DNA of 61,895 nucleotides, the filler included. It is 6 parts of 6 records of this genome, joined end to end, with 100 filler letters (N's around TTAATTAATTAA, not from the genome) between each part and the next. Parts side by side here need not be neighbours in the genome. Positions count along the whole stretch, not along the records: positions 8,291 to 22,203 come from SRR31156797_11984; 5 more parts are not named here. One strand, 5' to 3'. The number at the start of each line of letters is the position of its first letter. The first letter of the stretch is position 1. The notes beneath the pieces were generated by a model. It saw nothing but the letters and a program-made list of their open reading frames with translations, did no database searches and had not been told where the DNA came from. Made by a program: the position numbers and the translations under genes. Positions 9,648 to 24,888 of this stretch are shown here, in pieces.

Positions 9648-9900
9648 ACTCATTCATGACATCGCAGGCGCTATTGCGCTGGCCGCCATTCTTTTGGCAT
9701 TCGTAAGAATGATCAAAGGACCTACGGCTGCAGACCGCGTTGTTGCACTTGACGTGATGACCATTATTGCGATCTCCCTGATCATCTACCTGGCATCACA
9801 TTTCCAACGCGTTATCTATGTTGACATTGCTTTGGTTTACGGATTGATCTCATTCGTGGGCGTTGTGGCCATTGCAAGATATATGGAAAGGGGGTTATAA
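9640..9900 (+). CDS. MrpF/MnhF-like antiporter subunit
   Basis: KGPTAADRVVALD. Confidence 0.92.
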   Translation: MAELIHDIAGAIALAAILLAFVRMIKGPTAADRVVALDVMTIIAISLIIYLASHFQRVIYVDIALVYGLISFVGVVAIARYMERGL

Positions 9901-10244
9901 TGGCACTATTCGGAGCAATTGTATCCCTGATCGGATCGATCTTTCTCTTCCTGGGAGCCCTGGGGCTTCTGCGCATGCCGGATATTTTCAACCGCATGCA
10001 GGCGGGCACCAAAGCGACCACCATGGGCACTATTCTGTTCCTGTTTGGAACGGCATTCTCTCATTATGAATGTGTCTGTGTCGGTAAGATCGTTATCCTT
10101 ATTCTTTTCATCATTTTCACCAACCCGCTATCATCTCACGCTTTAGCAAGAGCCGCTCATTTTATGGGTATTCCTCTGGCAAAGAAAACCGTGAAGGACG
10201 ATCTGGCGGATGACGAGAAAAAAGAGGAAGGAGGACAAGCATGA
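9900..10244 (+). CDS. MrpG/MnhG-like antiporter subunit
   Basis: RMPDIFNRMQAGTKATT, TNPLSSH. Confidence 0.92.
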   Translation: MALFGAIVSLIGSIFLFLGALGLLRMPDIFNRMQAGTKATTMGTILFLFGTAFSHYECVCVGKIVILILFIIFTNPLSSHALARAAHFMGIPLAKKTVKDDLADDEKKEEGGQA

Positions 10245-10489
10245 ATACTGTGATCATTGCCTCATTTGGAGTGATTATGGTCGTTGCGGCTTTTCTGGCG
10301 ATCTATCAGAAAAGTTTGTTGTCGGCCATTATCGTTGCAGGTTCGATCTCACTGCTGGCTTCCGTTATCTATATTATTATGGCGGCACCCGATGTTGCCA
10401 TGACCGAAGCGGCCATTGGGTCGGGTTTAACTACCATTGTGTTCTTATACGCATTGAACAAAGTAAGAAAGCAGGATAAAGATGGTTAA
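10241..10489 (+). CDS. DUF4040/MbhD-like small membrane subunit
   Basis: AAPDVAMTEAAIGSG. Confidence 0.9.
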   Translation: MNTVIIASFGVIMVVAAFLAIYQKSLLSAIIVAGSISLLASVIYIIMAAPDVAMTEAAIGSGLTTIVFLYALNKVRKQDKDG

Positions 10490-11171
10490 AAAAATATTTT
10501 ATGTGATCATTCTTGTGGCTTTGGCCGTCATGTTCCTGCCCCTTGCGACAGAACTGACACCTTTTCAAGAATTGTCACCCACAGCTGAAAAGTATGTAAA
10601 GGACGGTCCGGACGAACTCGGCGGCGCCAACTTGGTGACCTCCGTGATCGTAACCTATCGTGGTTTGGATACCTTGGGCGAGGTGGCCGTGCTTTTCATC
10701 GCGACTGCGGGCGTGGGCTTTTTCCTTCGTAGAGACGGGAAAAAAGTCGAACGCAAAAAACGCGGTTCATCACAGATCCTTCAGAGCGGAACGACCTTCC
10801 TGTTCCCGCTGATCCTGGTTTTTGGCGTGTACATTTTCGTGCATGGTCATCTGACCCCGGGCGGCGGTTTCCAGGGTGGTGTGGTCATTGCCTCCGGCAT
10901 GGTCCTGCTGTTGCTCTCACGGGTCTCAACAAAGATCAATACGACCGTTCTCCATTTTGTCGAGTCACTTTCCGGTGCCGCCTATATTGCCATTGGAATT
11001 CTTGGACTCGTTCTGGCGGCCGGTTTTCTTGATAACCGATTTCTCGAGCTCGGTAAGTTCGGCACCTTGCTGAGCGCCGGCGCTATTCCGTTGATCTATT
11101 CCTTTATCGGATTGAAGGTTGGTGCGGAATTGGTCGGGATCGTCGATAACATGCAAAAGGATCAACCATGA
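10482..11171 (+). CDS. MrpB/MnhB-like antiporter subunit
   Basis: YRGLDTLGE and GHLTPGGGFQGG. Confidence 0.92.
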   Translation: MVKKIFYVIILVALAVMFLPLATELTPFQELSPTAEKYVKDGPDELGGANLVTSVIVTYRGLDTLGEVAVLFIATAGVGFFLRRDGKKVERKKRGSSQILQSGTTFLFPLILVFGVYIFVHGHLTPGGGFQGGVVIASGMVLLLLSRVSTKINTTVLHFVESLSGAAYIAIGILGLVLAAGFLDNRFLELGKFGTLLSAGAIPLIYSFIGLKVGAELVGIVDNMQKDQP

Positions 11172-11521
11172 TATTAATGACTTATTTCGGATTAGCACTG
11201 ATCGTGATCGGAATTTGGGGCATGTTGACCCAGAAGAATATCATCAAGATCATCATCGGGTTTTCCATTGTGGATACCGGTGTGCACATGGTCATGGTCT
11301 CGATCGGATACTTGAAAGACCGTACGGCGCCTATTCTTGACAAAAAAGAAATTATTGGCGATGCAGTAAATCAAGTTGTGGATCCCATTCCTTCGGCATT
11401 GGTCTTAACGGCCATTGTTATTGGACTGGCGGTCACGGCACTGATGCTGTCCTACGCGGTAAAACTATACCAGAAAAAAGGAACACTCGATATTAATGAG
11501 TACAAGGAGTTAAAATGGTAA
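11168..11521 (+). CDS. MrpC/MnhC-like antiporter subunit
   Basis: DPIPSALVLTAIVIG. Confidence 0.92.
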   Translation: MILMTYFGLALIVIGIWGMLTQKNIIKIIIGFSIVDTGVHMVMVSIGYLKDRTAPILDKKEIIGDAVNQVVDPIPSALVLTAIVIGLAVTALMLSYAVKLYQKKGTLDINEYKELKW

Positions 11522-14500
11522 ATCCTATCTACATTTTCATTCTTGCTCTGGGCGCTGCGTTCCTTTTATCACTTATTGATAAACTGGGACGAAAAGTCTC
11601 AATGACAATATTCTACGGAGTGCTGGCCGGAATGGCAGCTATCTCCATGCAGTGGCTTCTTGCCCTTTTGAACGGCACCGAAACCCTGATGATCTATACA
11701 GCCGGATTCAAGCCACCGTTCTCCATCAATCTACAGATGGGGATCGAAGAGGCATTCTTTACACTTGCTGTGAACCTGATGGGACTCCTTGTTGGATTCG
11801 TGATGCTGAAACAACTGGAGAAGACAAAAGCCAATGCCATGATCCTCTTCCTTATGATGATCATGGGGATCAACGGACTGATCATGACACGCGATATGTT
11901 CAACTTATTCGTGTTCATGGAGATCACCTCGATCTCTACCTTTGCCTTGATCGGTATCAATCGCGGACTTAGGTCACTGTCTGCAGGTTTCAAATATGTC
12001 ATCGCCGGCGGTATCGCGTCGATCTTCTTTTTGATCGGTACGATCTATCTTTATCGTTTTTCCGGTGTGCTGCATATTGATTCCATGATCGCTGCTGTTG
12101 ATGTTGCTTCTTCGCAGGCGACCTTCCTGGCGGTCTTTATTCTGTTAATGGCTATCGTGATCGAACTGAAGCCTTTCCCGGCGAACGGCTGGGCGCTGGA
12201 TGTTTATGAAGCTACCGACAGCAGTGTTACCTCCTTGGTGGCATCGGCTTCGGCAGCCGGAATGTTCTTTGCATTGCATAAGATCATGCCCCTGCTGAAC
12301 GACAGTTTGCTGCTAACAATGACAGGTGTGGGGCTTGTAACATTCGTGGCATCAAACCTGATGGGTCTAAAACAGGAAAATGCAAAACGACTTCTGGGCT
12401 ATTCTTCCATTGGGCAGATCGGCCTGGTCGTTGGAGTTTATACCTTATTAACCCAATTGGGATATGCTTCCACGGACAAGATCATTATTCTGATCGTTGG
12501 CGGCTTGTTCATCAATCACTTTATCGCCAAGGCCGGATTATTCTGGTTGGCGGGTGTAGTAAATAAAGAAAATATCAACGACTGGGGCGCGCTTCGTAAA
12601 AAGCCCATCATGCTTTTTGCATTCGGAGCTTTTGTTCTGGCCTTGGTCGGACTTCCGCCGCTGCCGGCATTTTTTGCCAAGTGGCAACTGGTAATGACCC
12701 TTGCCGCCGAGAACCAATTCCTGGTCATTGGCGCCGTGTTGCTCGGTACGCTTTTTGAAGCGGTCTATCTGATGCGCTGGCTGGGCAAGGTGATCAAAAG
12801 CGAGGTTGTTGAAGAGCTGAAAGTCGAATTTAACAAATGGTTGCCCATTGTGCTGATGGCCTTGACGATCATCGGATTGGGTGCCTTCACTGCAACTTAC
12901 GTCCCCGGTGGAGAAAGTCTGAAGATCTTCTACCTGCCTATGTTGTTGGTTGCAGCTCTTTTCATTCTCGATTTTCTGCCGGCATGGCTCAAGAATGCCA
13001 TCGTCATACTGGCGGTTTCTGCATACACATATATTAATCGTGGCGAAGTGGACGGCTACAGGATCATCTTCGGTATTGTTTTCCTCATCGGTACGGTTGT
13101 ACTTCTATTTCCCGGTTTCCACGTTAAAGGCAAACGTGCCGGATTCTATCCCTTTGTTGCCATGATGCTTGCAGGACTTGCCTGCATGCTGTTGGCCAAG
13201 AATACCCTGCAGTTCTTTACTGCCTGGGAATTGATGACACTGGGATCCTACTTTATGGTACTGAAAGGCAAGAAAGCTGAAAAGCCGGCATTGTCCTATT
13301 TAACCTTTGGATTGGGTTCAGCGTACGTCATGCTGATGGGACTGGGATTGTTCTCTTTCTCGAATGGCGGCAGTATGGAGTTAGCACTTCTTGGTGACCT
13401 GAATCCATACTCAACGACGATTTTCATCTTGATGTCAGTCGCGTTCCTGACGAAGCTGGCTATCATGGGTGTTCATGTCTGGCAGCCGGGAACCTATTCG
13501 GAAGCCGACGGCGATGTTTCGGCCATCCTTTCGGGTGTGCTGACCAAGGCCGGTGTTTTTGGCATGATGATCTTGCTTTTCTCAATTCAAAAACCCATGG
13601 TTGGAAATGTTGAAGTCCTTTACGTCTTGAGTTGGATCGGAGCACTGACCGCATTCCTGGGTAACACCATGGCCATTTATCAGGAAGATGTGAAAAAACT
13701 TCTCTCTTGGGCAAGTATCGGAGCTATGGGTTATGTGCTGTTCTCATTGAGCATGCAAACCTATCTTGGGTGGGTTACCTCTATTGCTTTTGCTTTGAAC
13801 CATTTCCTTTATAAGGGATTGCTCTTCATCACCGTAGCCGGTGTGATCTATCGCCTTAAAACACGCAATATGTATGAAATGGGCGGTATGATCAAAAAGA
13901 TGCCCATCTCATTCATTGCCATGCTTATGGGTATTATCGCTGTCTCCGGCGTTCCGCCGCTGTCAGGATATGCCGGCAAATGGATCAGCTTTAATGCTAT
14001 CCTTGAAACCGGTTGGTACCTGCAGGGCATCGTAATGTCCGTAGCCGGTGTGATCGCTTTCCTCTATCTGTTCCGCATGATCTATACGATCTTCCTGGGA
14101 CAGTTGAAAGACAATCACCGTCATGTAAAGGAAGCCCCGATCGGATTCATTATTCCTCAGCTGATCATGCTGGCGGCTATTATGGTCTTTTCGGTACGAC
14201 CCGGATTGATCCTGAAAACCTCCGGTGATTTTATCACTACCAGTTTCCCTGATAATGTTATTACTTGGGTAGACGGTACTGCTCATACGCAGTTCGGTTA
14301 CTGGAACGGCACCTGGGTAATGTTCGCTACAGCCGGTGTTTTTGGTTTCGCTTTCATTCTGCTGATGCTAATGAAACGTCGCAATACAGTGAAAGCCGGA
14401 CAGTTCAATATTGTGTATGCGGCCGAGCGTCCTTCACGTCCCGAACTGACCCATGTGGGTTACAATTTCTTTGCCCATTACCGCAGAGCACTTGGAACAT

Positions 14501-14661
14501 TTTCTCTGCCGATCATGCAGAAATTCTGGAAGGTGGTGGATGATGTTTTTCATTCCACTGCGGATACATTAAGAAAGATCTATACCGGAAACGGTCAAAC
14601 CTATCTTGTGCATATCATTGTCTTTGTGATGGTGGTTTATATCATAGCGATCGGAGGATAG
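11515..14661 (+). CDS. Fused double MrpD-type antiporter-like subunit
   Basis: 1048 aa, two antiporter repeats, collinear with 1230..4376. Confidence 0.9.
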   Translation: MVNPIYIFILALGAAFLLSLIDKLGRKVSMTIFYGVLAGMAAISMQWLLALLNGTETLMIYTAGFKPPFSINLQMGIEEAFFTLAVNLMGLLVGFVMLKQLEKTKANAMILFLMMIMGINGLIMTRDMFNLFVFMEITSISTFALIGINRGLRSLSAGFKYVIAGGIASIFFLIGTIYLYRFSGVLHIDSMIAAVDVASSQATFLAVFILLMAIVIELKPFPANGWALDVYEATDSSVTSLVASASAAGMFFALHKIMPLLNDSLLLTMTGVGLVTFVASNLMGLKQENAKRLLGYSSIGQIGLVVGVYTLLTQLGYASTDKIIILIVGGLFINHFIAKAGLFWLAGVVNKENINDWGALRKKPIMLFAFGAFVLALVGLPPLPAFFAKWQLVMTLAAENQFLVIGAVLLGTLFEAVYLMRWLGKVIKSEVVEELKVEFNKWLPIVLMALTIIGLGAFTATYVPGGESLKIFYLPMLLVAALFILDFLPAWLKNAIVILAVSAYTYINRGEVDGYRIIFGIVFLIGTVVLLFPGFHVKGKRAGFYPFVAMMLAGLACMLLAKNTLQFFTAWELMTLGSYFMVLKGKKAEKPALSYLTFGLGSAYVMLMGLGLFSFSNGGSMELALLGDLNPYSTTIFILMSVAFLTKLAIMGVHVWQPGTYSEADGDVSAILSGVLTKAGVFGMMILLFSIQKPMVGNVEVLYVLSWIGALTAFLGNTMAIYQEDVKKLLSWASIGAMGYVLFSLSMQTYLGWVTSIAFALNHFLYKGLLFITVAGVIYRLKTRNMYEMGGMIKKMPISFIAMLMGIIAVSGVPPLSGYAGKWISFNAILETGWYLQGIVMSVAGVIAFLYLFRMIYTIFLGQLKDNHRHVKEAPIGFIIPQLIMLAAIMVFSVRPGLILKTSGDFITTSFPDNVITWVDGTAHTQFGYWNGTWVMFATAGVFGFAFILLMLMKRRNTVKAGQFNIVYAAERPSRPELTHVGYNFFAHYRRALGTFSLPIMQKFWKVVDDVFHSTADTLRKIYTGNGQTYLVHIIVFVMVVYIIAIGG

Positions 14662-14664
14662 AGC

Positions 14665-15585
14665 ATGGAATTTCAAGCTATTAAAATACTATACGCACTC
14701 CTGACGGTTTTCATCGTCCTGAATATCGGACTGGTCCTGGGGGGTGTGACCCGAAAGATCGCGGCCCGTGTTGGCGGGCGATACGGTATTCGTTGGTATC
14801 AGCCCTATATTGATCTGGTCAAGAACTACTCCATCCGTACTTCGGTACATCATGGTATCATGTTCTGGCTGGGTCCGGTATTTCGACTGGCCGGCGGTAT
14901 GGGTGTACTGATCTTTATCCCGGCGATCTACGGATCCGAGATGTTCAGCAACTTCTCATTTGCCGGTGACCTGATGCTGATCCTTTACTTTATTTTCTTC
15001 GGTACGCTGGGCATGGCTCTGGGTGCCGGTGAAAGTGGACATCCTTATTCGGCCATCGGAGTAAGTCGCGGACTGGCGCAGGTAACTGCCGCCGAGATCC
15101 CCTTGTTGATCGCCATTATGGCCGTGGGTATTCAGTATCAAACACTTTCCGTGACTGCGATCGTAGGCGCCCAACAGGCCGGTATGGCAAGTTGGACAGC
15201 TGTCAGCAATCCGCTGCTCGGAATTCTTGCCATCATTGGCTATCTGGGTTCTATGATGCGATCACCCTTCGATGTGGTGTTGGCGCCCCAGGAAATTCCC
15301 ATTGGTCCGCCAACGGAATTTCACGGAACCTTTTTGGCCCTGCTGCAAACCAACCGGAGCATTTTTCCGGTCGCCAAGACCATCCTCTTCGTTAACCTCT
15401 TTTTCGGAGGCGCCACGAATTGGCCGATCATGATCCTGAAAGCATTCATGCTTTACATGGTATCAGTTATTGTCGGGTCAGTCATGGCACGTTTCAGAGT
15501 AGATCAATCCATACGCTGGTTCTATAAGTATGCACTTCCTCTGGGATTGATCACCTTGTTAGTCACCGTATTAATGTTCAAATAA
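14665..15585 (+). CDS. NuoH/MbxM-like membrane subunit
   Basis: ARVGGRYG..QP, RSPFD..APQEIP.GP.TE, RFRVDQ. Confidence 0.92.
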   Translation: MEFQAIKILYALLTVFIVLNIGLVLGGVTRKIAARVGGRYGIRWYQPYIDLVKNYSIRTSVHHGIMFWLGPVFRLAGGMGVLIFIPAIYGSEMFSNFSFAGDLMLILYFIFFGTLGMALGAGESGHPYSAIGVSRGLAQVTAAEIPLLIAIMAVGIQYQTLSVTAIVGAQQAGMASWTAVSNPLLGILAIIGYLGSMMRSPFDVVLAPQEIPIGPPTEFHGTFLALLQTNRSIFPVAKTILFVNLFFGGATNWPIMILKAFMLYMVSVIVGSVMARFRVDQSIRWFYKYALPLGLITLLVTVLMFK

Positions 15586-15596
15586 AGGATATATTC

Positions 15597-16241
15597 ATGT
15601 CGATGAAAGACCTTGAAAAAAGAATGGTAACCGGGCCGGACGGAGAGCAGTTCGAAGTCGATCCCATGCAGGATTACTTCTGCCAGGAACCCCCTCAGCC
15701 CCATAAAGCATCCAGCATAAGAATTTGGGAAAAGTTCCTGAATTGGTGCCGTGGAGAATCCTTGTGGATCCTCGGCTTCGGTACGGGCTGCGGCGCTATT
15801 GAAATGCGTCCCCTGATGACTCCCCGCTTTGATGCCTATCGCTATGGAATTCAGTGGCGGCCGACACCTCGCCAGGCGAATCTTTTCGTCATTGGCGGTT
15901 ATATGTCGGTTAAGACATTGAAACGTGCCATCCGTTCATACGAGCAGATGCAGGGACCTAAGTTCGTGGTCGGATTGGGATCTTGCACTATCAATGGCGG
16001 GATGTATTTTGACAGCTACAATACCATTAACCGGCTGGATCACTATATGCCGGTGGATGTTTACATCGCAGGCTGTATGCCGCGACCCGAAGCCCTTCTT
16101 GCAGGATTTGAAGAACTTAAAAAACTCATCAAAGCAGGGAAGGCCGAAGGCCAGAATAAGTATGCCGAGAATTTTGAGTGGTATAAAGCAAATCAGAAAA
16201 AGATCATCAAGCATTGGGATATGCCGGATTATAACTGGTAA
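15597..16241 (+). CDS. NuoB/MbxJ-like Fe-S subunit
   Basis: GTGCGAIEM, TPRQA, GSCTINGG, DVYIAGCMPRPE. Confidence 0.92.
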   Translation: MSMKDLEKRMVTGPDGEQFEVDPMQDYFCQEPPQPHKASSIRIWEKFLNWCRGESLWILGFGTGCGAIEMRPLMTPRFDAYRYGIQWRPTPRQANLFVIGGYMSVKTLKRAIRSYEQMQGPKFVVGLGSCTINGGMYFDSYNTINRLDHYMPVDVYIAGCMPRPEALLAGFEELKKLIKAGKAEGQNKYAENFEWYKANQKKIIKHWDMPDYNW

Positions 16242-16270
16242 ACCCGTGAACCAATAAGAGAGCAATATCT

Positions 16271-16798
16271 ATGAAAGAGTTATTGAAAGATCTGAAAAAA
16301 CGTTACGGAACAAGTAAGGCCGTTCAACAACGGGCGGACTTGACATTCGTAACGATCAAAAAAGAGGACGCTGTCGCAGCGATCACGCATCTGCGGGATC
16401 ATGAAGGTTTTACTCACCTGGTGTTGCTGACTGCCGTCGATTGGTTGGAGGACGGGAAATTCCAGTTGACCTATCTGTTGAACAATGACGCAAAAAGGAT
16501 CGATCTTGGACTGCGCGTGATGCTTGACAGAGAAAAGGCAGAAATGGAATCAATTCATCACCTTTGGGAACAGGCAGCGACCTATCAACGCGAGTTGCAT
16601 GAAATGTTCGGGATCAACTTTCCGGGATCACCCCGAATTGATGAACCCTTTATACTTGAGGGCTGGCATGATATTCCACCTTACCGCCGTGATTTTGATA
16701 CATTGAAGTATTCCGAGGAAACCTATTTTCCGCGTCCCGGACGTGTGACCCATGATCCCGAAGAATACATGAAGAAAAAACTCTATCCGGAGGAATGA
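16271..16798 (+). CDS. NuoC/MbxK-like subunit
   Basis: TAVDW, RELHEMFGINFPGSP, PPYRRDF. Confidence 0.9.
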   Translation: MKELLKDLKKRYGTSKAVQQRADLTFVTIKKEDAVAAITHLRDHEGFTHLVLLTAVDWLEDGKFQLTYLLNNDAKRIDLGLRVMLDREKAEMESIHHLWEQAATYQRELHEMFGINFPGSPRIDEPFILEGWHDIPPYRRDFDTLKYSEETYFPRPGRVTHDPEEYMKKKLYPEE

Positions 16799-16799
16799 C

Positions 16800-17978
16800 A
16801 TGGCCGATAAAAATAAATACAGAGAAAAATTCCCCGCAAAGAATCCGGACGGGACCAATATCATCGATCTTGAGAGCGGACAGTTCATCAAGGTCTGGCA
16901 GGGTCCCCAGCATCCGGGTATTACCGGTAATATGTCATTGGAACTGATCATTCAGGGTGATGAGATCATGAAGTGCCAAACCCATGTGGGCTATTTGCAC
17001 CGTGGCTTTGAAAAGCTGATGGAACGCAGAAGTTTTATCCAGTGTTTCCCGCTTGTTTGTCGTATTGCCGTACCCGAACCGGATTTTAACGAATATTGTT
17101 TTGCCGCTACCATCGAAGAACTTGCCGGCATTAAGGTCCCCGAAGCCGCTGATTGGATGAGAACCCTTATCCTTGAAATGGCGCGATTGACCTCCTTCCT
17201 GATGTGGATGGGCGGCCAGTCCGGCGCATTTGGATTAGGCTTACCGGGGCAGTGGCTGAACTATGCCCGAGACCTGATGTTGGATCGTTTTGAAGAGATC
17301 TCCGGCGGACGAATTTACCATATGCATATCCTGCCCGGCGGCGTTCGAGGCTTATTGCCCGAAGGCTGGGAAGGACGCATGGAAGACACACTTCAGAAGA
17401 TCGAAGATGTCATGAAAGATGTTGAAAGAACACTCTTTCAGAATTCTGTTTTTAAAACGCGCTCGGTTGGCCTAGGTTATATTGATCCTACATGGATCGA
17501 TAAATATGGGATCGTTGGTCCCAACGCCCGTGCTGCCGGAGTACCTAAAGACGTAAGAAAAGATTATCCCCACCTGAAATATCCGGAACTGGATTTTGAC
17601 GTGATCACTGCAACCGATTCAGACGCCTATACCCGTGCTGTCTTGCGTAAGAAAGAAATTCACATGAGTATGGACCTGATCCGCCAGATCGTGGCAAAGA
17701 TGCCGAAAGATGGCGAGTTCATGGCCAAGGTACCGAATGTCCTTCATTGGAAGATCCCTAAGGGTGAAACCTACATCCGCTCTGAATGTACCCGCGGTGA
17801 ATACGGTTTTTATACCGTCACTGACGGCAGCGGATTTCCCCGAAGGGTCAATGTGCGCGGACCGAGTTACACTCACGCCGTTGCACTGATGGAGAAGCTG
17901 GCGATCGACTGCAATATTGCAGACACCGCCGGACTGATGGTATCCTTACATACCTATCCACCGGAAATTGAAAGGTAA
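16800..17978 (+). CDS. NuoD/MbxL-like subunit (no NiFe ligands)
   Basis: GPQHPG, GYLHRGFEKLME, PGGV, RGE.G, RGPSY; lacks CxxC motifs. Confidence 0.92.
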   Translation: MADKNKYREKFPAKNPDGTNIIDLESGQFIKVWQGPQHPGITGNMSLELIIQGDEIMKCQTHVGYLHRGFEKLMERRSFIQCFPLVCRIAVPEPDFNEYCFAATIEELAGIKVPEAADWMRTLILEMARLTSFLMWMGGQSGAFGLGLPGQWLNYARDLMLDRFEEISGGRIYHMHILPGGVRGLLPEGWEGRMEDTLQKIEDVMKDVERTLFQNSVFKTRSVGLGYIDPTWIDKYGIVGPNARAAGVPKDVRKDYPHLKYPELDFDVITATDSDAYTRAVLRKKEIHMSMDLIRQIVAKMPKDGEFMAKVPNVLHWKIPKGETYIRSECTRGEYGFYTVTDGSGFPRRVNVRGPSYTHAVALMEKLAIDCNIADTAGLMVSLHTYPPEIER

Positions 17979-17983
17979 ATAAT

Positions 17984-19771
17984 ATGGGTTATAAAGACGT
18001 TTTATCTCCCTTTGTAGCATGGAAGAATTTGGTCAAAGAACCGGTTTCCATCAAAAAGCCTCTCGAAAGAGAAGGCGCTCCGCGATACCGTGGATTCCAT
18101 ATGAACGATATGGAAAAATGTATCGGTTGCGGAACCTGTGAAGTGATCTGTCAAAATGCCACTATTGATATGGTGCCGGTTGAAGGCATCGAAACAAAAG
18201 ATGGTGACAGCGGGCTAAGGCCATTGTTTGACTACGGCCGCTGCTGTTGGTGTGCCCTTTGTGTGGATGTTTGTACAACAGGTTCGCTGACGATGAGCAA
18301 CGAGTTCAAATGGATCGATTCCGATCCGGATGTATTCCGATTTGTTGCCGGTGTGGACGAAAAGCCATGGGATAATAGCGAGCTTGGTTACAGGAAGCCC
18401 GATAATTTTGAGCTCTATGAACTTGAGCGCGTTCACATGGAAGAACTGAAACCCGGAGATCGTGATAGATCATTTATTGAGATCGTCAAAGGTTACTCAA
18501 AAGAACAGGCGATCAAGGAAGCCGACCGTTGCGTTTCCTGCGGGATCTGTATTGCAACCTGTCCGGCTCACATGGGTATTCCCCAATATATTGAAGCCGT
18601 ACGAAATGACGATATGGAAGAAGGTTTGAGGATCCTTTACGAGACCAATCCTTTGCCTGCCATTTGCGGTCGCGTTTGTACGCATAACTGTGAAACGGTC
18701 TGTGCATTGGGACATAAAGGTGATCCGCTTTCCATTCGCTGGTTAAAGCGTTATATTGCCGACCAGGTTCCAATCGAAAAATACAAAGAGATCCTGGGTG
18801 CAGATGCATTTGAACAGATGAATAAAAAAGTCGCGATCATTGGTGCCGGGCCGGGTGGTCTGTCTGCAGCCTATTATTTGGCAAACCTCGGTTACGAAGT
18901 CAAAGTGTTCGAAGCTATGGCCGAACCCGGAGGAATGACGCGTTACGGTATTCCTTCCTATCGCTTGCCATATGATCAATTGGATAAAGATGTTCAACAT
19001 ATCAAAGATCTTGGCGTTGAATTTGCTTTCAATACCCGGGTTGGAAAAGATGTCCCATTTGACAAATTACATAAAGACTACGATGCGGTTTTTGCGGCCA
19101 CAGGTCTTCATGATGGGCGATCCACCCGCGTAGACGGAACAGATCATCCCATGGTATTCCAGGCTGTGGATCTGCTTCGCGAGGTAACGGAAGGCAAGGA
19201 AATAGAAGTTGCCGAAAAAGTCGTTGTGATCGGCGGTGGTAATGTCGCCATGGATATCGCCAGAACAATGGCACGTCTTCAGAATAAGAAATATGGCAAA
19301 GTTCAATTGATCTTGACCTCTCTTGAAACTGAAGATATCATGCCGGCGGATCTTGAAGAGATCGTTGAATCTCGTGAAGAGAATGTCGTGATCGAAGACG
19401 GCTGGGGTCCAAAACTGATCGAGATCGAAGATGACAAGATCAAGGGACTGAAAGTTGTCCGCTGTTTATCGGTCTTTGATAAAAAAGGACATTTCAATCC
19501 GAAATTTGACAACAAAGATGAGAAATTCTTTGAAGCCGATATGGTTATAGAAGCGATCGGACAGGGAATGGATATCAGCTACATGAGCGAGATGCTAGGC
19601 AAGAAACTTGAAATGACGGAACGCAATCGTGTGAAGGTTGATACTTTCGCGCAGACTTCGGTTCCCTGGCTTTTCGTCGGTGGTGATATCATTGGCGGAA
19701 CCGATGCCATACAAGCTATTGCCGACGGTCATCGGGCTGCAAAAGGCATTGATAAATTCTTAAATAAGTGA
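17984..19771 (+). CDS. NuoI(MbxN)-GltD/NfnB-type FAD/Fe-S oxidoreductase fusion, copy 1
   Basis: RYRG + CIGCGTCEVIC + CCWCALCVDVC ferredoxin domain; RCVSCGIC...CP, CGRVC...CETVC, GAGPGG, GGGNVAMD, GGD. Confidence 0.9.
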   Translation: MGYKDVLSPFVAWKNLVKEPVSIKKPLEREGAPRYRGFHMNDMEKCIGCGTCEVICQNATIDMVPVEGIETKDGDSGLRPLFDYGRCCWCALCVDVCTTGSLTMSNEFKWIDSDPDVFRFVAGVDEKPWDNSELGYRKPDNFELYELERVHMEELKPGDRDRSFIEIVKGYSKEQAIKEADRCVSCGICIATCPAHMGIPQYIEAVRNDDMEEGLRILYETNPLPAICGRVCTHNCETVCALGHKGDPLSIRWLKRYIADQVPIEKYKEILGADAFEQMNKKVAIIGAGPGGLSAAYYLANLGYEVKVFEAMAEPGGMTRYGIPSYRLPYDQLDKDVQHIKDLGVEFAFNTRVGKDVPFDKLHKDYDAVFAATGLHDGRSTRVDGTDHPMVFQAVDLLREVTEGKEIEVAEKVVVIGGGNVAMDIARTMARLQNKKYGKVQLILTSLETEDIMPADLEEIVESREENVVIEDGWGPKLIEIEDDKIKGLKVVRCLSVFDKKGHFNPKFDNKDEKFFEADMVIEAIGQGMDISYMSEMLGKKLEMTERNRVKVDTFAQTSVPWLFVGGDIIGGTDAIQAIADGHRAAKGIDKFLNK

Positions 19772-19779
19772 GGTGCCCA

Positions 19780-20232
19780 ATGAAGATCTTTAATGTACAA
19801 GAGATCATTGAATACGCCATTCAAATAGAGAAGGAAAGTTTTGAATTCTACACCCGGGCCGCGACAAAGGTCGAACCGGGAGATGTATATGAACTACTGG
19901 TTCAACTTTCCACTGAAGAGATCGATCACCAAAATAGATTGAAAGGTTTGATCGACGAAGGCAAAGTTTCTATGCAAACTCTTCTAAAGGATATGGAAGT
20001 TGATACCACGATCATGGATCGTATTGTTGAGACCTCCGTGATCCCGGAAGATCCCAGCGCGCTAAATATTTTAAATATCGCACTTGAGCGTGAAAAGAAT
20101 ACAGAAGCCACCTATGCTATGCTGTTGACGCTCTCGCAGATCACCGACGATATCGTTGAGGTATTCGAAGATCTGCGTTTGCAAGAGCAAGGACACGCGA
20201 ATAAAATACAAGCAAGGATCAATAAATTATAA
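19780..20232 (+). CDS. ferritin-like/rubrerythrin family protein
   Basis: AIQIEKES..FY, EEIDH, ALEREK, QEQGH di-iron four-helix pattern; ATG 19780 follows GAGG. Confidence 0.85.
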   Translation: MKIFNVQEIIEYAIQIEKESFEFYTRAATKVEPGDVYELLVQLSTEEIDHQNRLKGLIDEGKVSMQTLLKDMEVDTTIMDRIVETSVIPEDPSALNILNIALEREKNTEATYAMLLTLSQITDDIVEVFEDLRLQEQGHANKIQARINKL

Positions 20233-20334
20233 TTCGAGCTGACCGGTAAAGTGTATTTGGAATACAGTATCAGAAACCACCAAAACTGAAATTGAAAATA
20301 CTACCAGCTTCTCACATTAAAGTGGAAAACAAAC

Positions 20335-22125
20335 ATGACGTTTAAAGATGTTCTCTCTCCTTTCCTGGCCTGGAAGAACCTGGTCAAAGAACCCGTGACT
20401 ATTAAAAAACCATTAGAGCGTAGAGGTGCACCCCGTTATCGCGGATTCCATATGAACGATATGGAAAAATGCATCGGCTGCGGGTCTTGTGAAGTAATTT
20501 GTCAGAATGCTACTATCGACATGGTGCCGGTTGAAGGTATCGAGACCAAAGACGGCGATAGCGGACTACGCCCTCTTTTTGATTACGGCCGTTGCTGTTG
20601 GTGTGCGCTGTGTGTGGATATTTGCACCACTGGTTCTCTGACCATGTCCAATGAATTTACGTGGGTCGACACGGATCCCGACGTATTCCGGTTTGTGGCC
20701 GGAGCGGACGATATGCCATGGAACAATGATGAGCTGGGATACAAAAAACCTGATAATTATGAATTAAATCCCCTGAAACATGTTAAGATGGATGAATTGA
20801 CAGCCGAAGAACGCGAAATGTCTTTTCTTGAAGTCGTCAAAGGTTATTCCAAAGAACAAGCCATGGCAGAAGCTGACCGTTGTGTTGCTTGCGGTATTTG
20901 TATTTCAACTTGTCCTGCTCACATGGGCATTCCCCAATACATCAAAGCCATTCGTGATGACGATATGGAAGAAGGCTTACGTTTGCTTTATGAAACCAAC
21001 CCCATGTCTGCAGTTTGCGGTCGTGCCTGCACTCACCGCTGCGAAGATGTATGTGCCACGGGCTATAAAGGCGACCCTATTTCCATTCGCTGGCTGAAAC
21101 GTTATATCATTGATCAGGTGTCACCCGAAAAGATCCCGGAGATCTTAAAGCCCATAGCAGAATCCAATGGTAAAAAAATATCGATCATCGGAGCCGGGCC
21201 GGGTGGTTTGACCGCAGCATATTATTTGGCATTGATGGGTTACGATATCAGCATATTTGAAGCAAAAGATAAAGCCGGAGGCATGTTACGCTACGGTATT
21301 CCCGAGTATCGTCTGCCCTACGATCAATTGGATAAAGATATTGATTATATCCTATCGCTGGGTGTTAAGATCCATTACAATACTCCCATCGGAAAAGATG
21401 TCAAATTCAACAAACTGATGGAAGATTCGGAAGCAGTTTTCTGTTCCACCGGTATGGATGTTCCCTATACAATGGGACTTGACGGTGAAGAAGGTAATGA
21501 GCATATCATGTCCGGACTCGACGTGCTTGATGATGCTACGCGAGGAAATGAACCTCGATTTGGTAAGTCAGTTGTTGTGATCGGTGGCGGATCTACCGCG
21601 ATGGATGCGGCAAGTACGGCTCGTCGTTACGGTGCTGAAGCAACGATACTATATCGCCGGCGCGAAGAAGATATGCCCGCAGAATTGGATGAAATAGACG
21701 ATGCTAAAGTAGAGGGTGTAAATATTATTACTCAGGCAATCCCGGTAAAGATCGAAAATGCCGAAAACGGGCAAGTCAAGATGATCTGGAATAAAGCGGA
21801 AATGGTAAGCGAAGGTCCGGGCAAACGACCCAAACCGGTTCCCATTGAAGGTGATATCCACGTAACTCAAGTTGATACCATTGTACCGGCTATTGGACAA
21901 TCGGCGGATTTTTCATACATGCCGAAAGATGTTGTTGATAAACTTGAATTCAAATGGGGCAAGCTCAAGACTGACCTGTTCGGGCAAACAGCCATCCCCA
22001 AACTATTTGCCGGCGGCGATATTGTTAATCCTACTGCTGACGCCATCACTGCAATCGCTGATGGACATCGGGCAGCGAAAGGAATTGATAGATATCTTCA
22101 AGGCAAAAGATGCGCTGAGCTCTGA
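20335..22125 (+). CDS. NuoI(MbxN)-GltD/NfnB-type FAD/Fe-S oxidoreductase fusion, copy 2
   Basis: Same architecture as 17984..19771; GGGSTAMD and YRR. Confidence 0.9.
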   Translation: MTFKDVLSPFLAWKNLVKEPVTIKKPLERRGAPRYRGFHMNDMEKCIGCGSCEVICQNATIDMVPVEGIETKDGDSGLRPLFDYGRCCWCALCVDICTTGSLTMSNEFTWVDTDPDVFRFVAGADDMPWNNDELGYKKPDNYELNPLKHVKMDELTAEEREMSFLEVVKGYSKEQAMAEADRCVACGICISTCPAHMGIPQYIKAIRDDDMEEGLRLLYETNPMSAVCGRACTHRCEDVCATGYKGDPISIRWLKRYIIDQVSPEKIPEILKPIAESNGKKISIIGAGPGGLTAAYYLALMGYDISIFEAKDKAGGMLRYGIPEYRLPYDQLDKDIDYILSLGVKIHYNTPIGKDVKFNKLMEDSEAVFCSTGMDVPYTMGLDGEEGNEHIMSGLDVLDDATRGNEPRFGKSVVVIGGGSTAMDAASTARRYGAEATILYRRREEDMPAELDEIDDAKVEGVNIITQAIPVKIENAENGQVKMIWNKAEMVSEGPGKRPKPVPIEGDIHVTQVDTIVPAIGQSADFSYMPKDVVDKLEFKWGKLKTDLFGQTAIPKLFAGGDIVNPTADAITAIADGHRAAKGIDRYLQGKRCAEL

Positions 22126-22203
22126 GATTGGGGCTCTGAGACAAAAAATTAAAAATTTTGGGAAAGCAAATACATATTCTCACATTCCCAGTGCCCAGTG
22201 CCC
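22119..22203. repeat. short direct/heptamer repeats at contig end
   Basis: GCTCTGAGA at 22119 and 22133; CCCAGTG tandem at 22187-22203. Confidence 0.4.
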
Positions 22204-22303
22204 NNNNNNNNNNNNNNNNNNNNNNNNNNNNNNNNNNNNNNNNNNNNTTAATTAATTAANNNNNNNNNNNNNNNNNNNNNNNNNNNNNNNNNNNNNNNNN
22301 NNN
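22204..22303. other. artificial contig linker
   Basis: N run with TTAATTAATTAA. Confidence 0.98.
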
Positions 22304-22469
22304 GCGAGCCAAAGCACGCAAAGCTCAGCAGCAAGAAACTCCGGCTAAGCAAGAGCAAGTTTCCGAATCAAATGAAGACCCGAAAAAAGCAGCCGTAGCG
22401 GCAGCCATCGCTCGAGCTAAAGCGCGTAAAGCACAACAACAAAATAAAAATATCGAGGAGAATGACTAG
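22304..22469 (+). CDS. rnfC: RnfC/RsxC C-terminus, partial
   Basis: Manual translation ...[30 protein letters not shown], the Ala/Lys repeat tail of RsxC; stop overlaps the rnfD start. Confidence 0.9.
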
Positions 22470-23515
22470 TGGCTTTCTTTATTGCTAGTTCCCCGCATAC
22501 TCACATCAAACGCAACACTTCTGACTTAATGAAGTGGGTTGCACTGTGTGCTATACCTGGTCTGCTGGTGCAAACCTATTTCTTCGGTTTTGGAACACTC
22601 ATTCAGTTAGTGTTTGCGATTGTTGTGGCTCTCGGTTTTGAAGCTGGTGTGATGAAGCTACGTGGCCGCCCGGCTAAAATGGCGCTGCGTGATCACAGTG
22701 CCATAGTCACAGCTTGGTTGTTAGCGGTTGCCATCCCACCATTATCCCCTTGGTGGATAGTAGTGATTGGTCTTATCTTTGCCATTCTCATTGCCAAACA
22801 TTTGTATGGTGGTTTAGGTCAAAATCCTTTCAACCCAGCAATGACCGCTTATGTGGTATTACTGATCTCTTTCCCCGTTCAGATGACCAGTTGGATTGCA
22901 CCGGCAGCGTTAGCACATGAAAGTATCTCTTTCGTTGATTCTTTCTCATTGATTTTCTCAGGCTTTAATAGCGACGGACTTTCACTGCAACAAGTTCGAA
23001 CGGGTATTGATGGGATAACAATGGCGACACCGTTAGACTCATTGAAGACATCATTGAAAGCTGGAAACACCTTATCTGAAGCTCTCTCTCAACCTCAATT
23101 TGGCAGCTTAGCTGGCGTCGGTTGGGAATGGGTCAACATCGCTTATTTAGCGGGCGGGCTTGTACTGCTCAAACTGCGTATCATCAACTGGCATATTCCT
23201 GTCGCGTTCTTGGCTGGTCTGGTCATTTCGGCCACTTTGATGACCTTATTCGCTCCGGGAACAACCGCTTCGCCGTTAATTCACCTGCTGTCTGGTGCAA
23301 CCATGTTGGGTGCATTTTTCATCGCAACTGATCCTGTCACAGCCTCAACAACAGTGAAAGGCCGACTGATTTTCGGTGCGTTTATTGGCGCTATGGTATT
23401 CATAATTCGTAGCTGGGGTGGTTTCCCTGACGGAGTTGCATTCGCCGTTCTGCTGGCAAACATGTGTGTACCACTGATTGACTACTACACTAAACCACGT
23501 ACGTATGGGCATTAA
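22469..23515 (+). CDS. rnfD: Rnf electron transport complex subunit D
   Basis: [25 protein letters not shown] (FMN site), FFIATDPVT. Confidence 0.96.
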
Positions 23516-23523
23516 GGATTATT

Positions 23524-24162
23524 ATGTTAACAGCTATTAGAAAAAACGGCGCTATCCTTGCCATCTTTGCCTGTGTTTCTACTGGAGTTGTAGCGATTAC
23601 CCATCAGCTCACAGCGAGTCAGATTCAAAAGCAAGAGAGAAAACAGTTATTGTCGGTATTAAACCAAGTAATACCTCATGATCTGCATGACAATCAACTC
23701 GCTCAATCCTGTATTTTGGTTAACGACCCAGCGCTCGGAACCGAATCATCAATGCCTGCTTATGTTGCAACACTCAATGGCAACCCAAGCGCCATTGCCA
23801 TAGAAGCGATTGCTCCTGATGGATACAATGGTGCGATAAAAATTATTATTGGCATCAAGCAAGATGGAACAATCACGGGTACCAGGGTGTTAGCACATAA
23901 TGAAACCCCGGGCTTAGGTGATAAAATCGATCTGCGTATTACTGATTGGATACTTAACTTCGCTGGCAAAACCGTGAGCAGTGACAACGAAGCGCAATGG
24001 AAAGTACGTAAAGACGGCGGCCAGTTTGACCAATTTACCGGAGCCACCATCACGCCAAGAGCCGTGGTTAAGGCTGTAAAACAGACGGTTATGTATGTCA
24101 ATACCAACCGAGCACAGCTGCTCTCGCAACCTTATAACTGCGGAGGTCAAGACGATGAATAG
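23524..24162 (+). CDS. rnfG: Rnf electron transport complex subunit G
   Basis: [21 protein letters not shown]-attachment motif. Confidence 0.96.
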
Positions 24163-24850
24163 TGAACATAAAGCCCTACTCAAAAATGGTATGTGGGAAA
24201 ATAACCCTGCTTTAGTTCAGTTACTTGGCTTATGCCCGCTGCTGGCCGTATCTTCAACGGTCACCAACGCTTTAGGCCTTGGAATTGCGACCCTACTCGT
24301 TTTAGTCGGCTCTAACGTGACTGTCTCTTTAGTTCGAGATTATGTACCGAAAGAAGTCCGCATTCCTGTTTTCGTGATGATCATTGCATCCTTAGTGACT
24401 TGTGTTCAGTTACTGATGAACGCCTATGCTTACGGGCTATACCTGTCACTCGGTATATTTATCCCATTGATCGTTACCAACTGTATCATCATAGGACGTG
24501 CTGAAGCGTTCGCTTCCAAAAACGATGTCTTACCATCTGCACTAGACGGGTTTTGGATGGGTATGGGCATGACATCTGTATTAGTGGTACTGGGTGCGAT
24601 GCGCGAGGTTATCGGTAATGGCACCCTGTTCGACGGCGCAGACCTGTTACTTGGAGACTGGGCAAAAGTATTGAGAATTGAGATCTTCCATTTCGACAGT
24701 AGCTTCTTGCTGGCATTACTTCCACCGGGAGCCTTTATTGGCGTCGGTTTCCTGATTGCACTGAAAAACGTGGTTGATAAACAACTAGCGCAACGACAAC
24801 CAAAACAAGAAAAACCAACGATTGAACGCGCACGCGTGACAAACGTATAA
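24155..24850 (+). CDS. rnfE: Rnf electron transport complex subunit E
   Basis: [23 protein letters not shown]; start moved to ATG 24155 after GGAGG. Confidence 0.96.
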
Positions 24851-24888
24851 ATACAAACTGAAAAGTAAATAAAAAGCAGCCGAGAGCA

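Follow-up and report, generated by a model that had tools for sequence, protein, structure and literature searches.

What does a membrane complex do when its large subunit lacks the signature residues of [NiFe] hydrogenases, sulfane reductases and quinone reductases alike? This question is raised by an open reading frame encoding a 392-amino-acid MbsL/MbxL-type large subunit (L; positions 16,800-17,978, + strand) in the window, the whole 61,895-nucleotide stretch of DNA analysed here. A preliminary description of this DNA had singled out the motifs GPQHPGITG, CRIAVPE and SLHTYPPEIER, with Ala at 17,067 and Tyr at 17,955. All of these were found again on re-reading: the motifs start at residues 35, 87 and 382, and Ala90 and Tyr386 are encoded by codons 17,067-17,069 and 17,955-17,957. 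The reference motifs that it had quoted also hold: in the alignment, P. furiosus MbsL (6u8y_L) reads LRICVPEPD and SLDNCPPDIDR at these sites, and M. smegmatis NuoD (8e9g_D) has GPQHPSTHG and TRMDYLSP. Likewise, the true [NiFe] large subunits included in our MAFFT alignment of 150 representatives display the expected two CxxC motifs (R-[VI]CGIC.. and DPC..C..R).

Alignment to MbhL, MbsL and NuoD agrees that the residues of all three sites are missing from L. By sequence alignment, the [NiFe] ligand positions are occupied by A90, E93, Y386 and E389, so that L lacks all four Cys that group 4 [NiFe] hydrogenases carry in their R-x-C-G-x-C and D-P-C-x-x-C motifs. The vestigial [NiFe] Cys of MbsL are not kept either, C85 being replaced by Ala90 and C385 by Tyr386. 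Compared with complex I, L has Thr42 for the His38 of Nqo4, Val91 for Tyr87 and His for D401. What it does have is a Cys (C87) directly before the motif Arg (R88), a position referred to below as R-1, and a C-terminal H384-x-Y386. Judged by these ligand positions, L is unable to bind a [NiFe] centre. Its Cys-less state, viewed against the family, is neither chance nor a sequencing error, since Tyr stands at the C-terminal site in 88 of 160 members and a residue other than Cys at R+2 in 40 of 160.

Both sequence and predicted fold place L nearer to MbsL than to NuoD or MbhL. Among solved structures, P. furiosus MbsL matches best (6u8y_L, E 4.7e-90), whereas no NuoD does better than 7e-57 and the values for MbhL (3.9e-32; 6CFW) and HycE (1.7e-22; 7Z0S) are lower still in significance. 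The MbsL chain is also the top fold match of the AF2 model (pLDDT 89.8; TM 0.89/0.93, rmsd 2.4 Å), compared with a TM of about 0.85-0.89 for complex I NuoD/Nqo4. L resembles complex I in the same fold, a common GPxHP start of the beta1-beta2 loop and a score of 365.6 bits against the NCBIfam model NF004739 'NuoD' (cut-off 360). The group 4 hydrogenase subunits MbhL and HycE are also homologous to L, and the Mrp-linked architecture described below is as in MBH.

L is encoded in a strictly conserved 12-gene operon on the + strand, in which an Mrp module is combined with genes of the NuoH/B/C/D type and with a fusion between a NuoI-like subunit and an NfnB/GltD-like flavoprotein. Six small Mrp-type membrane subunits recognized by Pfam and NCBIfam come first (MnhE, 9,147-9,647; MrpF, 9,640-9,900; MnhG, 9,900-10,244; MbhD, 10,241-10,489; MbhE/MnhB, 10,482-11,171; MnhC/NuoK-like, 11,168-11,521), followed by a fused double antiporter-like subunit of 1,048 amino acids (NuoN-like plus NuoM/MrpD-like; 11,515-14,661; PF00361 in two stretches, NCBIfam), a NuoH/MbsM-like membrane anchor (M; 14,665-15,585; PF00146), the NuoB/MbsJ-like J (15,597-16,241), a NuoC/MbsK-like subunit (16,271-16,798; PF00329), L, and the fused flavoprotein N1 (17,984-19,771). 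The NuoEFG module of complex I is absent. This assembly of Mrp E, F, G, D, B and C with antiporter-like and NuoH/B/C/D-like genes, together with the NuoI-gltD-like fusion and a 'rubrerythrin' at the operon end, corresponds to the 'mbx-like' operon described in 2015, in which an Mrp module and partial nuo genes are joined by a gltD-like flavoprotein that replaces or is fused to NuoI (PMC4758237). Comparison with the Thermotoga mbx-like operon was by its published description. Bacterial Mrp-Mbx systems have been reported in Thermotoga, Mesotoga, proteobacteria and Endoriftia (PMC4758237, bioRxiv 10.1101/322537, PMC9431562, PMC11636981), and they sit between hydrogenases and complex I in evolution.

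The window adds no new kind of system; its family is common and strongly conserved. Two scans for relatives, with one genome per species, returned 303 and 139 relatives spanning at least eight phyla, and 160 loci were kept (numbered below as locus L002 and so on). Cultivable carriers among the relatives include Prolixibacter bellariivorans, Thiohalocapsa marina and Magnetospirillum sp. UT-4. Gene order is common to the loci with enough flanking DNA: all ten genes upstream of L are present in the same order in 44 of the 46 loci with enough upstream DNA, and a full-length NuoI-flavoprotein fusion lies 3' of L in 132 of 135. Of the 12 subunits compared, J shows the highest conservation (median 74% identity) and L comes next (66%), which argues that the J/L module is under strong constraint.

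The archaeal MBS is the best solved match for L, J and the NuoI-like domain alike, and J carries the feature on which our interpretation turns. It matches 6u8y_J (E 4.2e-62) in a gapless alignment (GFGTGCGAIE in J, AFCTGCGGIE in MbsJ) that includes the short MBS-type loop and the three-Cys pattern of the proximal [4Fe-4S] cluster, with C65, C130 and C160 for MbsJ C28, C93 and C123, and Gly62 in place of the non-ligating MbsJ C25. The same three Cys occur in all of the 147 relatives compared, of which 142 have Gly and 5 have Ala at position 62. The tandem Cys-Cys of cluster N2 in complex I is absent, J having one Cys in GTGCG. Window and archaeal MBS therefore share the three-Cys proximal cluster, the absence of a [NiFe] site and of the quinone His/Tyr, and an Mrp-type module with two antiporter-like units. 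They differ in that the two antiporter-like subunits are fused in the window, that the MbsN-like domain is fused to a flavoprotein where MBS has a stand-alone, ferredoxin-accepting MbsN, that the flavoprotein fusion is followed by a ferritin-like gene and by a second such fusion, and that the host is a mesophilic bacterium.

In the archaeal enzyme, catalysis has been assigned to the MbsJ proximal [4Fe-4S] cluster with its three Cys ligands, and both the MbsL C85A/C385A double mutant and the MbsJ C25A enzyme retain polysulfide reductase activity (PMC7684303); the vestigial C85/C385 pair is thus descriptive of MbsL, not functional. The preliminary description had treated the two MbsL Cys as catalytic, which the double mutant contradicts, and had read the missing residues as a sign of a different, unknown chemistry. 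That step finds no support, in view of the mutants of both subunits, the three-Cys J and the shared operon with its fused flavoprotein. The observation on L is accordingly real but largely ordinary, because the absent residues have already been shown to be dispensable in MBS. We are confident that the L gene belongs to the bacterial Mbx-like family and that its L Cys are not needed for catalysis: what the P. furiosus mutant does without, nature does without as well, and attention shifts to the NuoB-like three-Cys cluster. The mbx-like NuoD homologues are described as keeping the vestigial Cys (PMC4758237), whereas neither is left in the L of the window and the first is gone from 40 of 160 members.

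The electron input of the complex is suggested by N1, in which Pfam and NCBIfam recognize a NuoI/MbsN-like part with two [4Fe-4S] clusters and an NfnB/GltD-like part of about 450 amino acids with two more, FAD and an NAD(P)H site. Residues 6-105 match MbsN (6u8y_N), residues 150-593 align with full-length T. maritima NfnB (4ylf_B, 2e-76), and PRK13984 is matched at 906 bits, short of its curated cut-off of 946. All 17 cluster Cys are invariant in 137 of 137 relatives, and the FAD and NAD(P) glycine motifs are present. The closest known proteins to this part are NfnB, GltD and stand-alone NfnB-like Fnor (4YLF_B, 5JCA_L, 6S6S_G). Aligned with NfnB, N1 has all eight cluster Cys, the FAD/NAD(P) motifs and the Arg with which NfnB touches flavin N5. 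It differs from NfnB in its fusion to a NuoI-type domain, in the loss of the NADP-site Arg pair and in the lack of an NfnA partner in the operon. The two NADP-phosphate-binding Arg appear to map onto a YRR motif that is absent from N1 (the acidic type is found in 126 of 137 relatives) and kept in N2, a second NuoI-NfnB/GltD fusion 61% identical to N1 (20,335-22,125, + strand). N1 is predicted to be NADH-type because it is without this motif, and N2 NADPH-type because it keeps it. Flavin-based bifurcation at the NfnB-like FAD was set aside, as the operon has no NfnA-like second path; in addition, the Arg-Arg that follows the MPA motif of NfnB is Asp-Leu in N1, in a stretch where the residue mapping is uncertain.

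From this architecture we infer the direction of electron flow, the preference for NADH and the identity of the acceptor. A nicotinamide cofactor would dock on the NfnB/GltD-like domain (NADH in N1, NADPH in N2), and electrons would pass from FAD over its two [4Fe-4S] clusters and the two NuoI-type [4Fe-4S] clusters to the proximal cluster of J. The redox chemistry would take place at that cluster, which should have one open iron because it has only three Cys ligands. L would not be a chemical catalyst; with J and M it would form the chamber for the substrate as well as the coupling loops. The proximal cluster would then reduce an acceptor bound in the chamber, most likely sulfane sulfur or polysulfide, and this reduction would power H+/Na+ translocation by way of the Mrp module and the fused double antiporter-like subunit. 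We regard this whole explanation, an MBS-type reductase that pumps ions, is linked to NADH and probably acts on sulfane sulfur, as an evenly balanced proposition, and its pairing of sulfane sulfur as acceptor with NAD(P)H as donor as falling slightly short of even. By textbook potentials, electron transfer from NAD(P)H to polysulfide yields only about 60 mV, a small driving force for a complex that has two antiporter-like modules.

Expression data bear on the sulfur link in both directions. In T. maritima, mbxA is upregulated 4.36-fold on S0 (PMC9431562), which we count in favour. In Endoriftia, the rTCA genes are expressed together with Mrp-Mbx, and the genes for sulfur globule proteins share this pattern (PMC11636981); this too we count in favour. 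On the other hand, Mbx expression in Mesotoga is weak on thiosulfate (bioRxiv 10.1101/322537), which counts against a sulfur role. Our literature search found no activity assay of any bacterial Mrp-Mbx member. Gene neighbourhoods likewise cut both ways: sulfur-related genes (CoADR-rhodanese beside the operon in loci L040 and L057, and a DsrE-like gene inside it in locus L003) speak for a sulfur link but occur in only 3 of 22 long loci, and the 'rubrerythrin' in 14 of 22 points to peroxide or oxygen and away from sulfur. Several hosts, such as Sideroxydans, Gallionellaceae and Magnetospirillum, are without obvious polysulfide respiration.

The published reading of these operons is a different one. 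Two publications, on the Thermotoga and proteobacterial 'mbx-like' operon (PMC4758237) and on Mesotoga (bioRxiv 10.1101/322537, citing Schut 2013), annotate the complex as a ferredoxin:NAD(P)+ oxidoreductase that translocates ions, a functional counterpart of Rnf. Electrons from reduced ferredoxin would enter at the NuoI-type clusters, the fused flavoprotein would reduce NAD(P)+, and the J/L chamber would bind no external substrate; in autotrophs and nitrogen fixers the complex would run in reverse, the ion gradient driving electrons from NAD(P)H to ferredoxin. This fits the kinship of the flavoprotein domain with NfnB, whose homologues standing alone, without NfnA, are ferredoxin:NADP+ oxidoreductases (PMC12221290), and the Endoriftia co-expression, as the rTCA cycle is ferredoxin-dependent (PMC11636981). 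It also fits a range of hosts (fermenters, sulfur and iron oxidizers, magnetotactic bacteria) to which general redox balancing is better suited than a sulfur-specific role. Yet a direct path from the NuoI clusters to FAD would bypass the proximal cluster and the chamber, the coupling site in all studied relatives, so that ion movement becomes hard to explain, and neither the top conservation of J and L nor the invariant three-Cys cluster is expected of a module that lies off the pathway. The same view was once held for P. furiosus Mbx, which was later characterized as a sulfane reductase (PMC4758237, PMC7684303). The ferredoxin reading is the main rival to NADH-linked sulfane reduction, and we consider it possible but rather doubtful.

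The regulatory gene in front of the operon bears on the same choice. A Rex-type redox-sensing regulator (8,457-9,104, + strand; Pfam Put_DNA-bind_N and CoA_binding) precedes MnhE, and a Rex-like gene lies directly 5' of the operon in seven relatives (loci L002, L003, L004, L006, L007, L012 and L014). Upstream of rex in the window is a perfect 22-bp palindrome, TGTGAAAGTTATAACTTTCACA (8,314-8,335, + strand), a candidate operator for a rex-mbx operon; the same 22-mer occurs 40-65 nt upstream of rex in loci L002, L003 and L014. The canonical Rex box was rejected as evidence, as its 4 matches are not enriched over the 4.7 expected by chance, none lies in the promoter, and the palindrome has another spacing. 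Because the Rex box matches are no more than chance would give, the palindrome is assigned to Rex only tentatively. A Rex-type NADH sensor with a conserved palindrome would fit an NADH-consuming role of the operon, and Rex control would suggest induction when NADH is high, which speaks against the ferredoxin reading.

Variation at the L sites across the family allows the idea of an altered chemistry to be weighed more closely. At the C-terminal site, the 160 members include 88 of a Tyr type (His-x-Tyr) and 71 of a Cys type ([Gln/Ala]-x-Cys); the His is present in 86 of the 88 and in 1 of the 71, respectively. The preliminary description had allowed that a Cys just before the Arg might compensate, and this caveat gains comparative support: all 40 members with another residue at R+2 have Cys at R-1 or R-2, and no member of the 160 is without a Cys in R-2 to R+2. 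Within the 24-row clade that holds the L of the window, the Cys shifts between R-1 and R-2 and is never lost. In the AF2 model, C87 lies in the final turn of helix 79-89 and A90 directly after it; with a spacing of three residues, the two should face the same side.

Such a pattern could mean that, in the clade to which the L of the window belongs, the pocket was rebuilt to take another, protonatable acceptor, His384-x-Tyr386 and the relocated Cys replacing the vestigial pair and forming a new acid/base or thiol site beside the proximal cluster, a view close to the 'different chemistry' proposed earlier. His384 and Tyr386 correspond to Thermus Nqo4 positions 401 and 403, and positions 86 and 401 lie in the quinone reaction chamber of Thermus complex I (PMC4758237). 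High conservation of L points the same way, and the invariant His-x-Tyr, together with a Cys near R88 that no member has lost, suggests a pocket in L that is not inert. Against this, the Cys/Cys, Cys/Tyr and Ala/Tyr forms of L occur with an identical operon, the same three-Cys J and the same fused flavoprotein, which argues for one reaction family-wide. On the tree, 2 changes are enough for the Tyr/Cys state and 3 for the R+2 state, so the correlations reflect few independent events, and the presence of at least one Cys is partly expected by descent because a second Cys was already in most members. As far as these comparisons reach, Ala90/Tyr386 is lineage variation within the family and no marker of an altered reaction. 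A rebuilt pocket seems improbable to us, and we give similarly little credence to its fuller version, in which the Tyr-type clade would have refitted the Ni-Fe site, as opposed to letting it decay, into a proton- or thiol-donating site beside the open iron, for an acceptor that differs from the polysulfide of archaeal MBS, with interchangeable input through NADH-type N1 and NADPH-type N2.

The gene that follows N1 suggests yet another function. A ferritin-like 'rubrerythrin' without a rubredoxin domain (19,768-20,232, + strand; PF02915) has a start that overlaps the N1 stop codon, and by Pfam on open reading frames it is the commonest neighbour after N, present in 14 of 22 long loci. In locus L031 a peroxiredoxin gene comes next, and the operon is reported often to terminate with rubrerythrin (PMC4758237). 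The assembly could thus be an NAD(P)H peroxidase or oxygen-defence system in which the flavoprotein feeds a co-translated diiron protein and the membrane complex is secondary. The ferritin-like frame is missing, however, from 8 of the 22 long loci, including the Bacteroidota-type L025 and L054; tblastn with the protein of the window found it at 19 of 120 loci, an undercount relative to the Pfam result. The peroxidase reading also gives no account of why 12 genes should build an ion pump whose J, L and M subunits are so strongly conserved, and we judge it very unlikely.

For bacterial Mrp-Mbx, the locus offers several handles: His-x-Tyr versus x-Cys, the relocated Cys, a predicted NADH/NADPH split and a Rex-type regulator with its palindrome. 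In the parts of the bacterial Mrp-Mbx papers available to us, no mention of the His-x-Tyr variant or of the NADH-/NADPH-type split was found, and a term search found no literature joining Mbx with Marinimicrobia. For Marinimicrobia from waters poor in oxygen, this complex is a candidate route by which the oxidation of NADH would be coupled to sulfur reduction and to a gradient of sodium or protons.

Two further features of the window concern its joined contigs. N2 is the final gene on a contig ending at 22,203, and the N-linker at 22,204-22,303 separates contigs that were joined artificially; N2 standing in for RnfC before rnfD-G-E was therefore ruled out. A second Mbx-like operon (1-6,778, - strand) was similarly dropped as an adjoining paralogue, as it lies on another contig and is Spirochaete-like. 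Two close Mbx copies in one genome were found in 0 of 151 genomes of the host phylum, and most subunits of the second operon are 76-88% identical to Spirochaete loci, the contig being either mis-binned or a product of transfer.

The large subunit L, a 392-residue uninterrupted frame at window:16800-17978:+, is neither a NuoD nor a hydrogenase. Its motifs GPQHPGITG, CRIAVPE and SLHTYPPEIER start at residues 35, 87 and 382, the four [NiFe] positions hold A90, E93, Y386 and E389, both cysteines of MbsL, from the Pyrococcus furiosus sulfane sulfur reductase complex MBS, are missing, and Thr42/Val91 occupy the Nqo4 His38/Tyr87 positions. These motifs and absences, claimed in the preliminary description, are confirmed, with Ala90 and Tyr386 at the codons it named, and the reference motifs it gave are correct: P. 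furiosus MbsL (6u8y_L) aligns as LRICVPEPD and SLDNCPPDIDR, M. smegmatis NuoD as GPQHPSTHG and TRMDYLSP, and true hydrogenases among the 150 best representatives carry R-[VI]CGIC and DPC..C..R. Those representatives were aligned from a search of 1.84 billion proteins with L, which gave 7564 matches at E <= 0.001. In the AF2 model of L (pLDDT 89.8, pTM 0.90), C87 lies in the last turn of helix 79-89 with A90 directly after it, and the top fold match is 6u8y_L (TM 0.89/0.93, rmsd 2.4 Å). L most resembles MbsL and probably works like it.

In the available text of Yu et al. 2020 (PMC7684303), MBS keeps C85 and C385 out of the four cysteines of the hydrogenase subunit MbhL, Nqo4 H38 and Y87 are not found in MbsL, and the residues changed in MbsL C85A/C385A and MbsJ C25A enzymes are 'not involved in catalysis'. 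The proximal [4Fe-4S] cluster of MBS is described there as having three cysteine ligands, MbsJ C28, C93 and C123, because the loop is three residues shorter than in the [NiFe] hydrogenase MBH, with one iron free for polysulfide; the review PMC8165549, in the part available, gives the same account of residues and cluster. Compared with MbsL, L lacks one descriptive feature, the two vestigial cysteines, which the experiments in PMC7684303 show to be non-functional.

The NuoB/MbsJ-like subunit J aligns with MbsJ without gaps (E 4.2e-62) and reads GFGTGCGAIE against AFCTGCGGIE in MbsJ, where complex I has a tandem CC. Its cysteines at positions 65, 130 and 160 are invariant in 147 family sequences, so the catalytic hallmark of MBS is fully kept, and the MbsJ C25 position is Gly in 142 and Ala in 5. 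An N-terminal extension of about 37 residues in J (window 15597-16241) is absent from MbsJ and includes a cysteine at residue 29 (DYFCQE); this is unlikely to be a fourth ligand of the proximal cluster, since it is found in only 98 of the 147 relatives (Ser in 35).

The pocket of L varies within the family. Among 160 sequences (the window and 159 loci, coverage >= 90%), the C-terminal site is Tyr in 88, Cys in 71 and a gap in one; 86 of the 88 Tyr-type sequences carry His two positions before the Tyr, and the Cys type pairs with Gln or Ala. At the MbsL C85 position, two residues after Arg88 (R+2), Cys occurs in 120, Ala in 36, Ser in 2 and Thr in 2, and all 40 non-Cys cases are of the Tyr type. 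The earlier caveat that a Cys just before the Arg could compensate gains comparative support because all 40 carry one, at R-1 (23) or R-2 (17). None of the 160 has zero cysteines in R-2 to R+2, and R+2 is the sole one in 23. The independent events are few, however: a FastTree phylogeny of the 160 rows and four outgroups gives 2 changes for Tyr/Cys and 3 for the disappearance of the R+2 Cys. The window L falls in a 24-row clade (support 100) in which the R+2 Cys is absent throughout and every member has Cys at R-1 or R-2. The neighbouring Cys may compensate.

Five linkers (44 N, TTAATTAATTAA, 44 N) at 8191-8290, 22204-22303, 36114-36213, 45996-46095 and 51717-51816 show that the window was artificially strung together from six contigs, and adjacency across the joints is therefore not real. 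The contig bearing L (8291-22203) carries a 22-bp palindrome (8314-8335), a Rex-type regulator (8457-9104), MnhE, MrpF, MnhG, MbhD, MbhE/MnhB and MnhC-like genes, a 1048-aa protein made of two fused antiporter-like units, and the NuoH-like (M), NuoB-like (J), NuoC-like (K) and NuoD-like (L) genes, in that order. After L come N1 (17984-19771), which fuses a NuoI-like 2x[4Fe-4S] domain to an NfnB/GltD-like flavoprotein and scores 906 bits against NCBIfam PRK13984, below the curated threshold of 946; a ferritin-like 'rubrerythrin' without a rubredoxin domain (19768-20232); and N2 (20335-22125), a second such fusion and the last gene of the contig. The rnfD-G-E genes are only apparent downstream neighbours of N2, being on the next contig (22304-36113), where rnfD-, rnfG- and rnfE-like genes and then endonuclease III lie at 22469-25530. 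That contig begins just ahead of rnfD, so rnfA, B and C are not seen on it, and the order resembles the E. coli rsx-nth arrangement.

A Rex-type NADH sensor stands upstream of the operon in the window and in seven relatives. A perfect 22-bp palindrome, TGTGAAAGTTATAACTTTCACA, at 8314-8335 upstream of the rex-like gene is a candidate operator; it recurs identically 5' of rex in relative loci L002 (393-414), L003 (364-385) and L014 (1526-1547), even though their Rex proteins are only 63-64% identical. Of the other four rex-bearing relatives, two have no upstream DNA and two no palindrome, and its spacing is unlike that of the canonical Rex box.

A scan with one genome per species gave 343 candidate stretches, 303 encoding L relatives. 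The best 80 of these are 65-89% identical to the window L, and their hosts are closest in Candidatus Neomarinimicrobiota, with others in Spirochaetes, Bacteroidales, Chromatiales and other Gammaproteobacteria, Dechloromonas, Sideroxydans and Magnetospirillum. A second scan, with a 63%-identical representative having both Cys, yielded 139 relatives among 193 stretches, chiefly from Bacteroidota, Chlorobiota, Calditrichia and Cloacimonadales. Among the 160 loci, 135 extend far enough downstream to be judged, and in 132 of them L is followed by a full-length NuoI-flavoprotein fusion (the three misses are partial matches); 46 extend far enough upstream, and 44 of these have all ten upstream genes. 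By median identity to the window, J (74%) and L (66%) are the two most conserved subunits and the antiporter-like protein (45%) the least. The accessory genes flanking the operon vary: a peroxiredoxin is encoded at L031:13427-14026, and dihydroorotate-dehydrogenase-like genes stand downstream of N in the Bacteroidota-type loci L025 (L025:13018-13998) and L054.

The available text of PMC4758237 describes a bacterial mbx-like operon with a gltD-related flavoprotein in place of NuoI, rubrerythrin often as the last gene, and vestigial cysteines at Thermus positions 86 and 403. The studied operon shows all three tested features of this type: the Mrp genes together with the antiporter-like and NuoH-, NuoB-, NuoC- and NuoD-like genes in a single operon, the fusion of the NuoI-like subunit to a gltD-like flavoprotein, and a rubrerythrin gene downstream. 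It differs from MBS by the fused flavoprotein. L is a real, conserved feature and a further member of an already known bacterial family with a predicted function.

N1 residues 6-105 match MbsN (4.9e-22), and residues 150-593 match T. maritima NfnB (2e-76), P. furiosus NfnI-L and GltD. Seventeen cysteines are invariant in all 137 family sequences, and N1 retains the Arg that contacts flavin N5 in NfnB (Arg187 in T. maritima; PMC6405883, available part). The NfnB segment YRRTEREMPA is LTSLETEDIMPA in N1; this acidic type occurs in 126 of the 137, and YRR is kept in 11, namely window N2 and 10 loci from Spirochaetota, Calditrichia and Cloacimonadales. According to the available part of an Nfn review, a pair of conserved Arg holds the additional phosphate of NADP+, and we infer that these are the YRR pair. 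Because YRR is absent from N1 and kept in N2, the two paralogues (61% identical, on one contig) are predicted to prefer NADH and NADPH, respectively, and may represent NADH-type and NADPH-type input modules.

The best-supported reading is that the complex is an MBS-type pump. FAD would be reduced by NADH, or by NADPH via N2, electrons would pass over four [4Fe-4S] clusters and reach the proximal three-Cys cluster, and an acceptor, by homology most likely sulfane sulfur, would be reduced within the J/L/M chamber; the loop GP[QN]HPG[IVM]TGNM, kept across the L family alignment, and the membrane arm would turn this reduction into ion movement. NAD(P)H offers only a small driving force for polysulfide reduction, which counts against this reading, as do the presence of the complex in some hosts not known to respire polysulfide and the scarcity of sulfur-related neighbours, seen in just 3 of 22 long loci (a ferritin-like gene is in 14 of 22). 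These three are CoA-disulfide-reductase/rhodanese fusions adjoining the operon at L040:237-2054 and L057:15427-18165, and a DsrE-like gene that separates N from the ferritin-like gene at L003:12969-13322. Published assignments, as worded in the parts of the sources available, diverge: T. maritima Mbx is called a sulfur reductase, with mbxA up 4.36-fold on S0 (PMC9431562), Mesotoga Mbx, whose low expression also counts against an MBS-type pump, an NADP:ferredoxin oxidoreductase (bioRxiv 10.1101/322537), and the direction of Endoriftia Mbx is given as unknown (PMC11636981); no published assay of a bacterial Mbx complex was found in the literature searched, as available. The chief alternative is an ion-coupled ferredoxin:NAD(P)+ oxidoreductase, which agrees with the broad range of hosts and with the Fnor activity that stand-alone NfnB homologues show (PMC12221290, available part), but in which electrons would bypass the chamber and the invariant three-Cys cluster.

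A second Mbx-like operon occupies window 3-6778 on the minus strand of contig 1-8190: E' (6251-6778), F' (5998-6258), G' (5668-5997), D' (5429-5671), B' (4717-5436), C' (4370-4720), a fused antiporter-like gene (1230-4376), M' (288-1229) and the initial 94 aa of J' (3-284), which share the single-Cys GTGCG motif. Its identity to the studied operon is 46-66%, and most of its subunits are 76-88% identical to the Spirochaete loci L051, L058, L063 and L067. That the two operons are neighbours was rejected, the contig joint being artificial. Of 151 sampled genomes from the phylum to which one close relative belongs, 32 contain a match at E <= 1e-60 (26 of them at least 53% identical), and none carries two close L copies; the second operon reflects either mis-binning of the contig or a transfer. 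A more distant L-like gene, 40-43% identical to the window L over residues 28-392, occurs in ten genomes of that phylum (G121, G133, G062, G027, G090, G149, G058, G034, G024 and G030), five of which (G133, G062, G090, G149 and G034) also have the close-type L.
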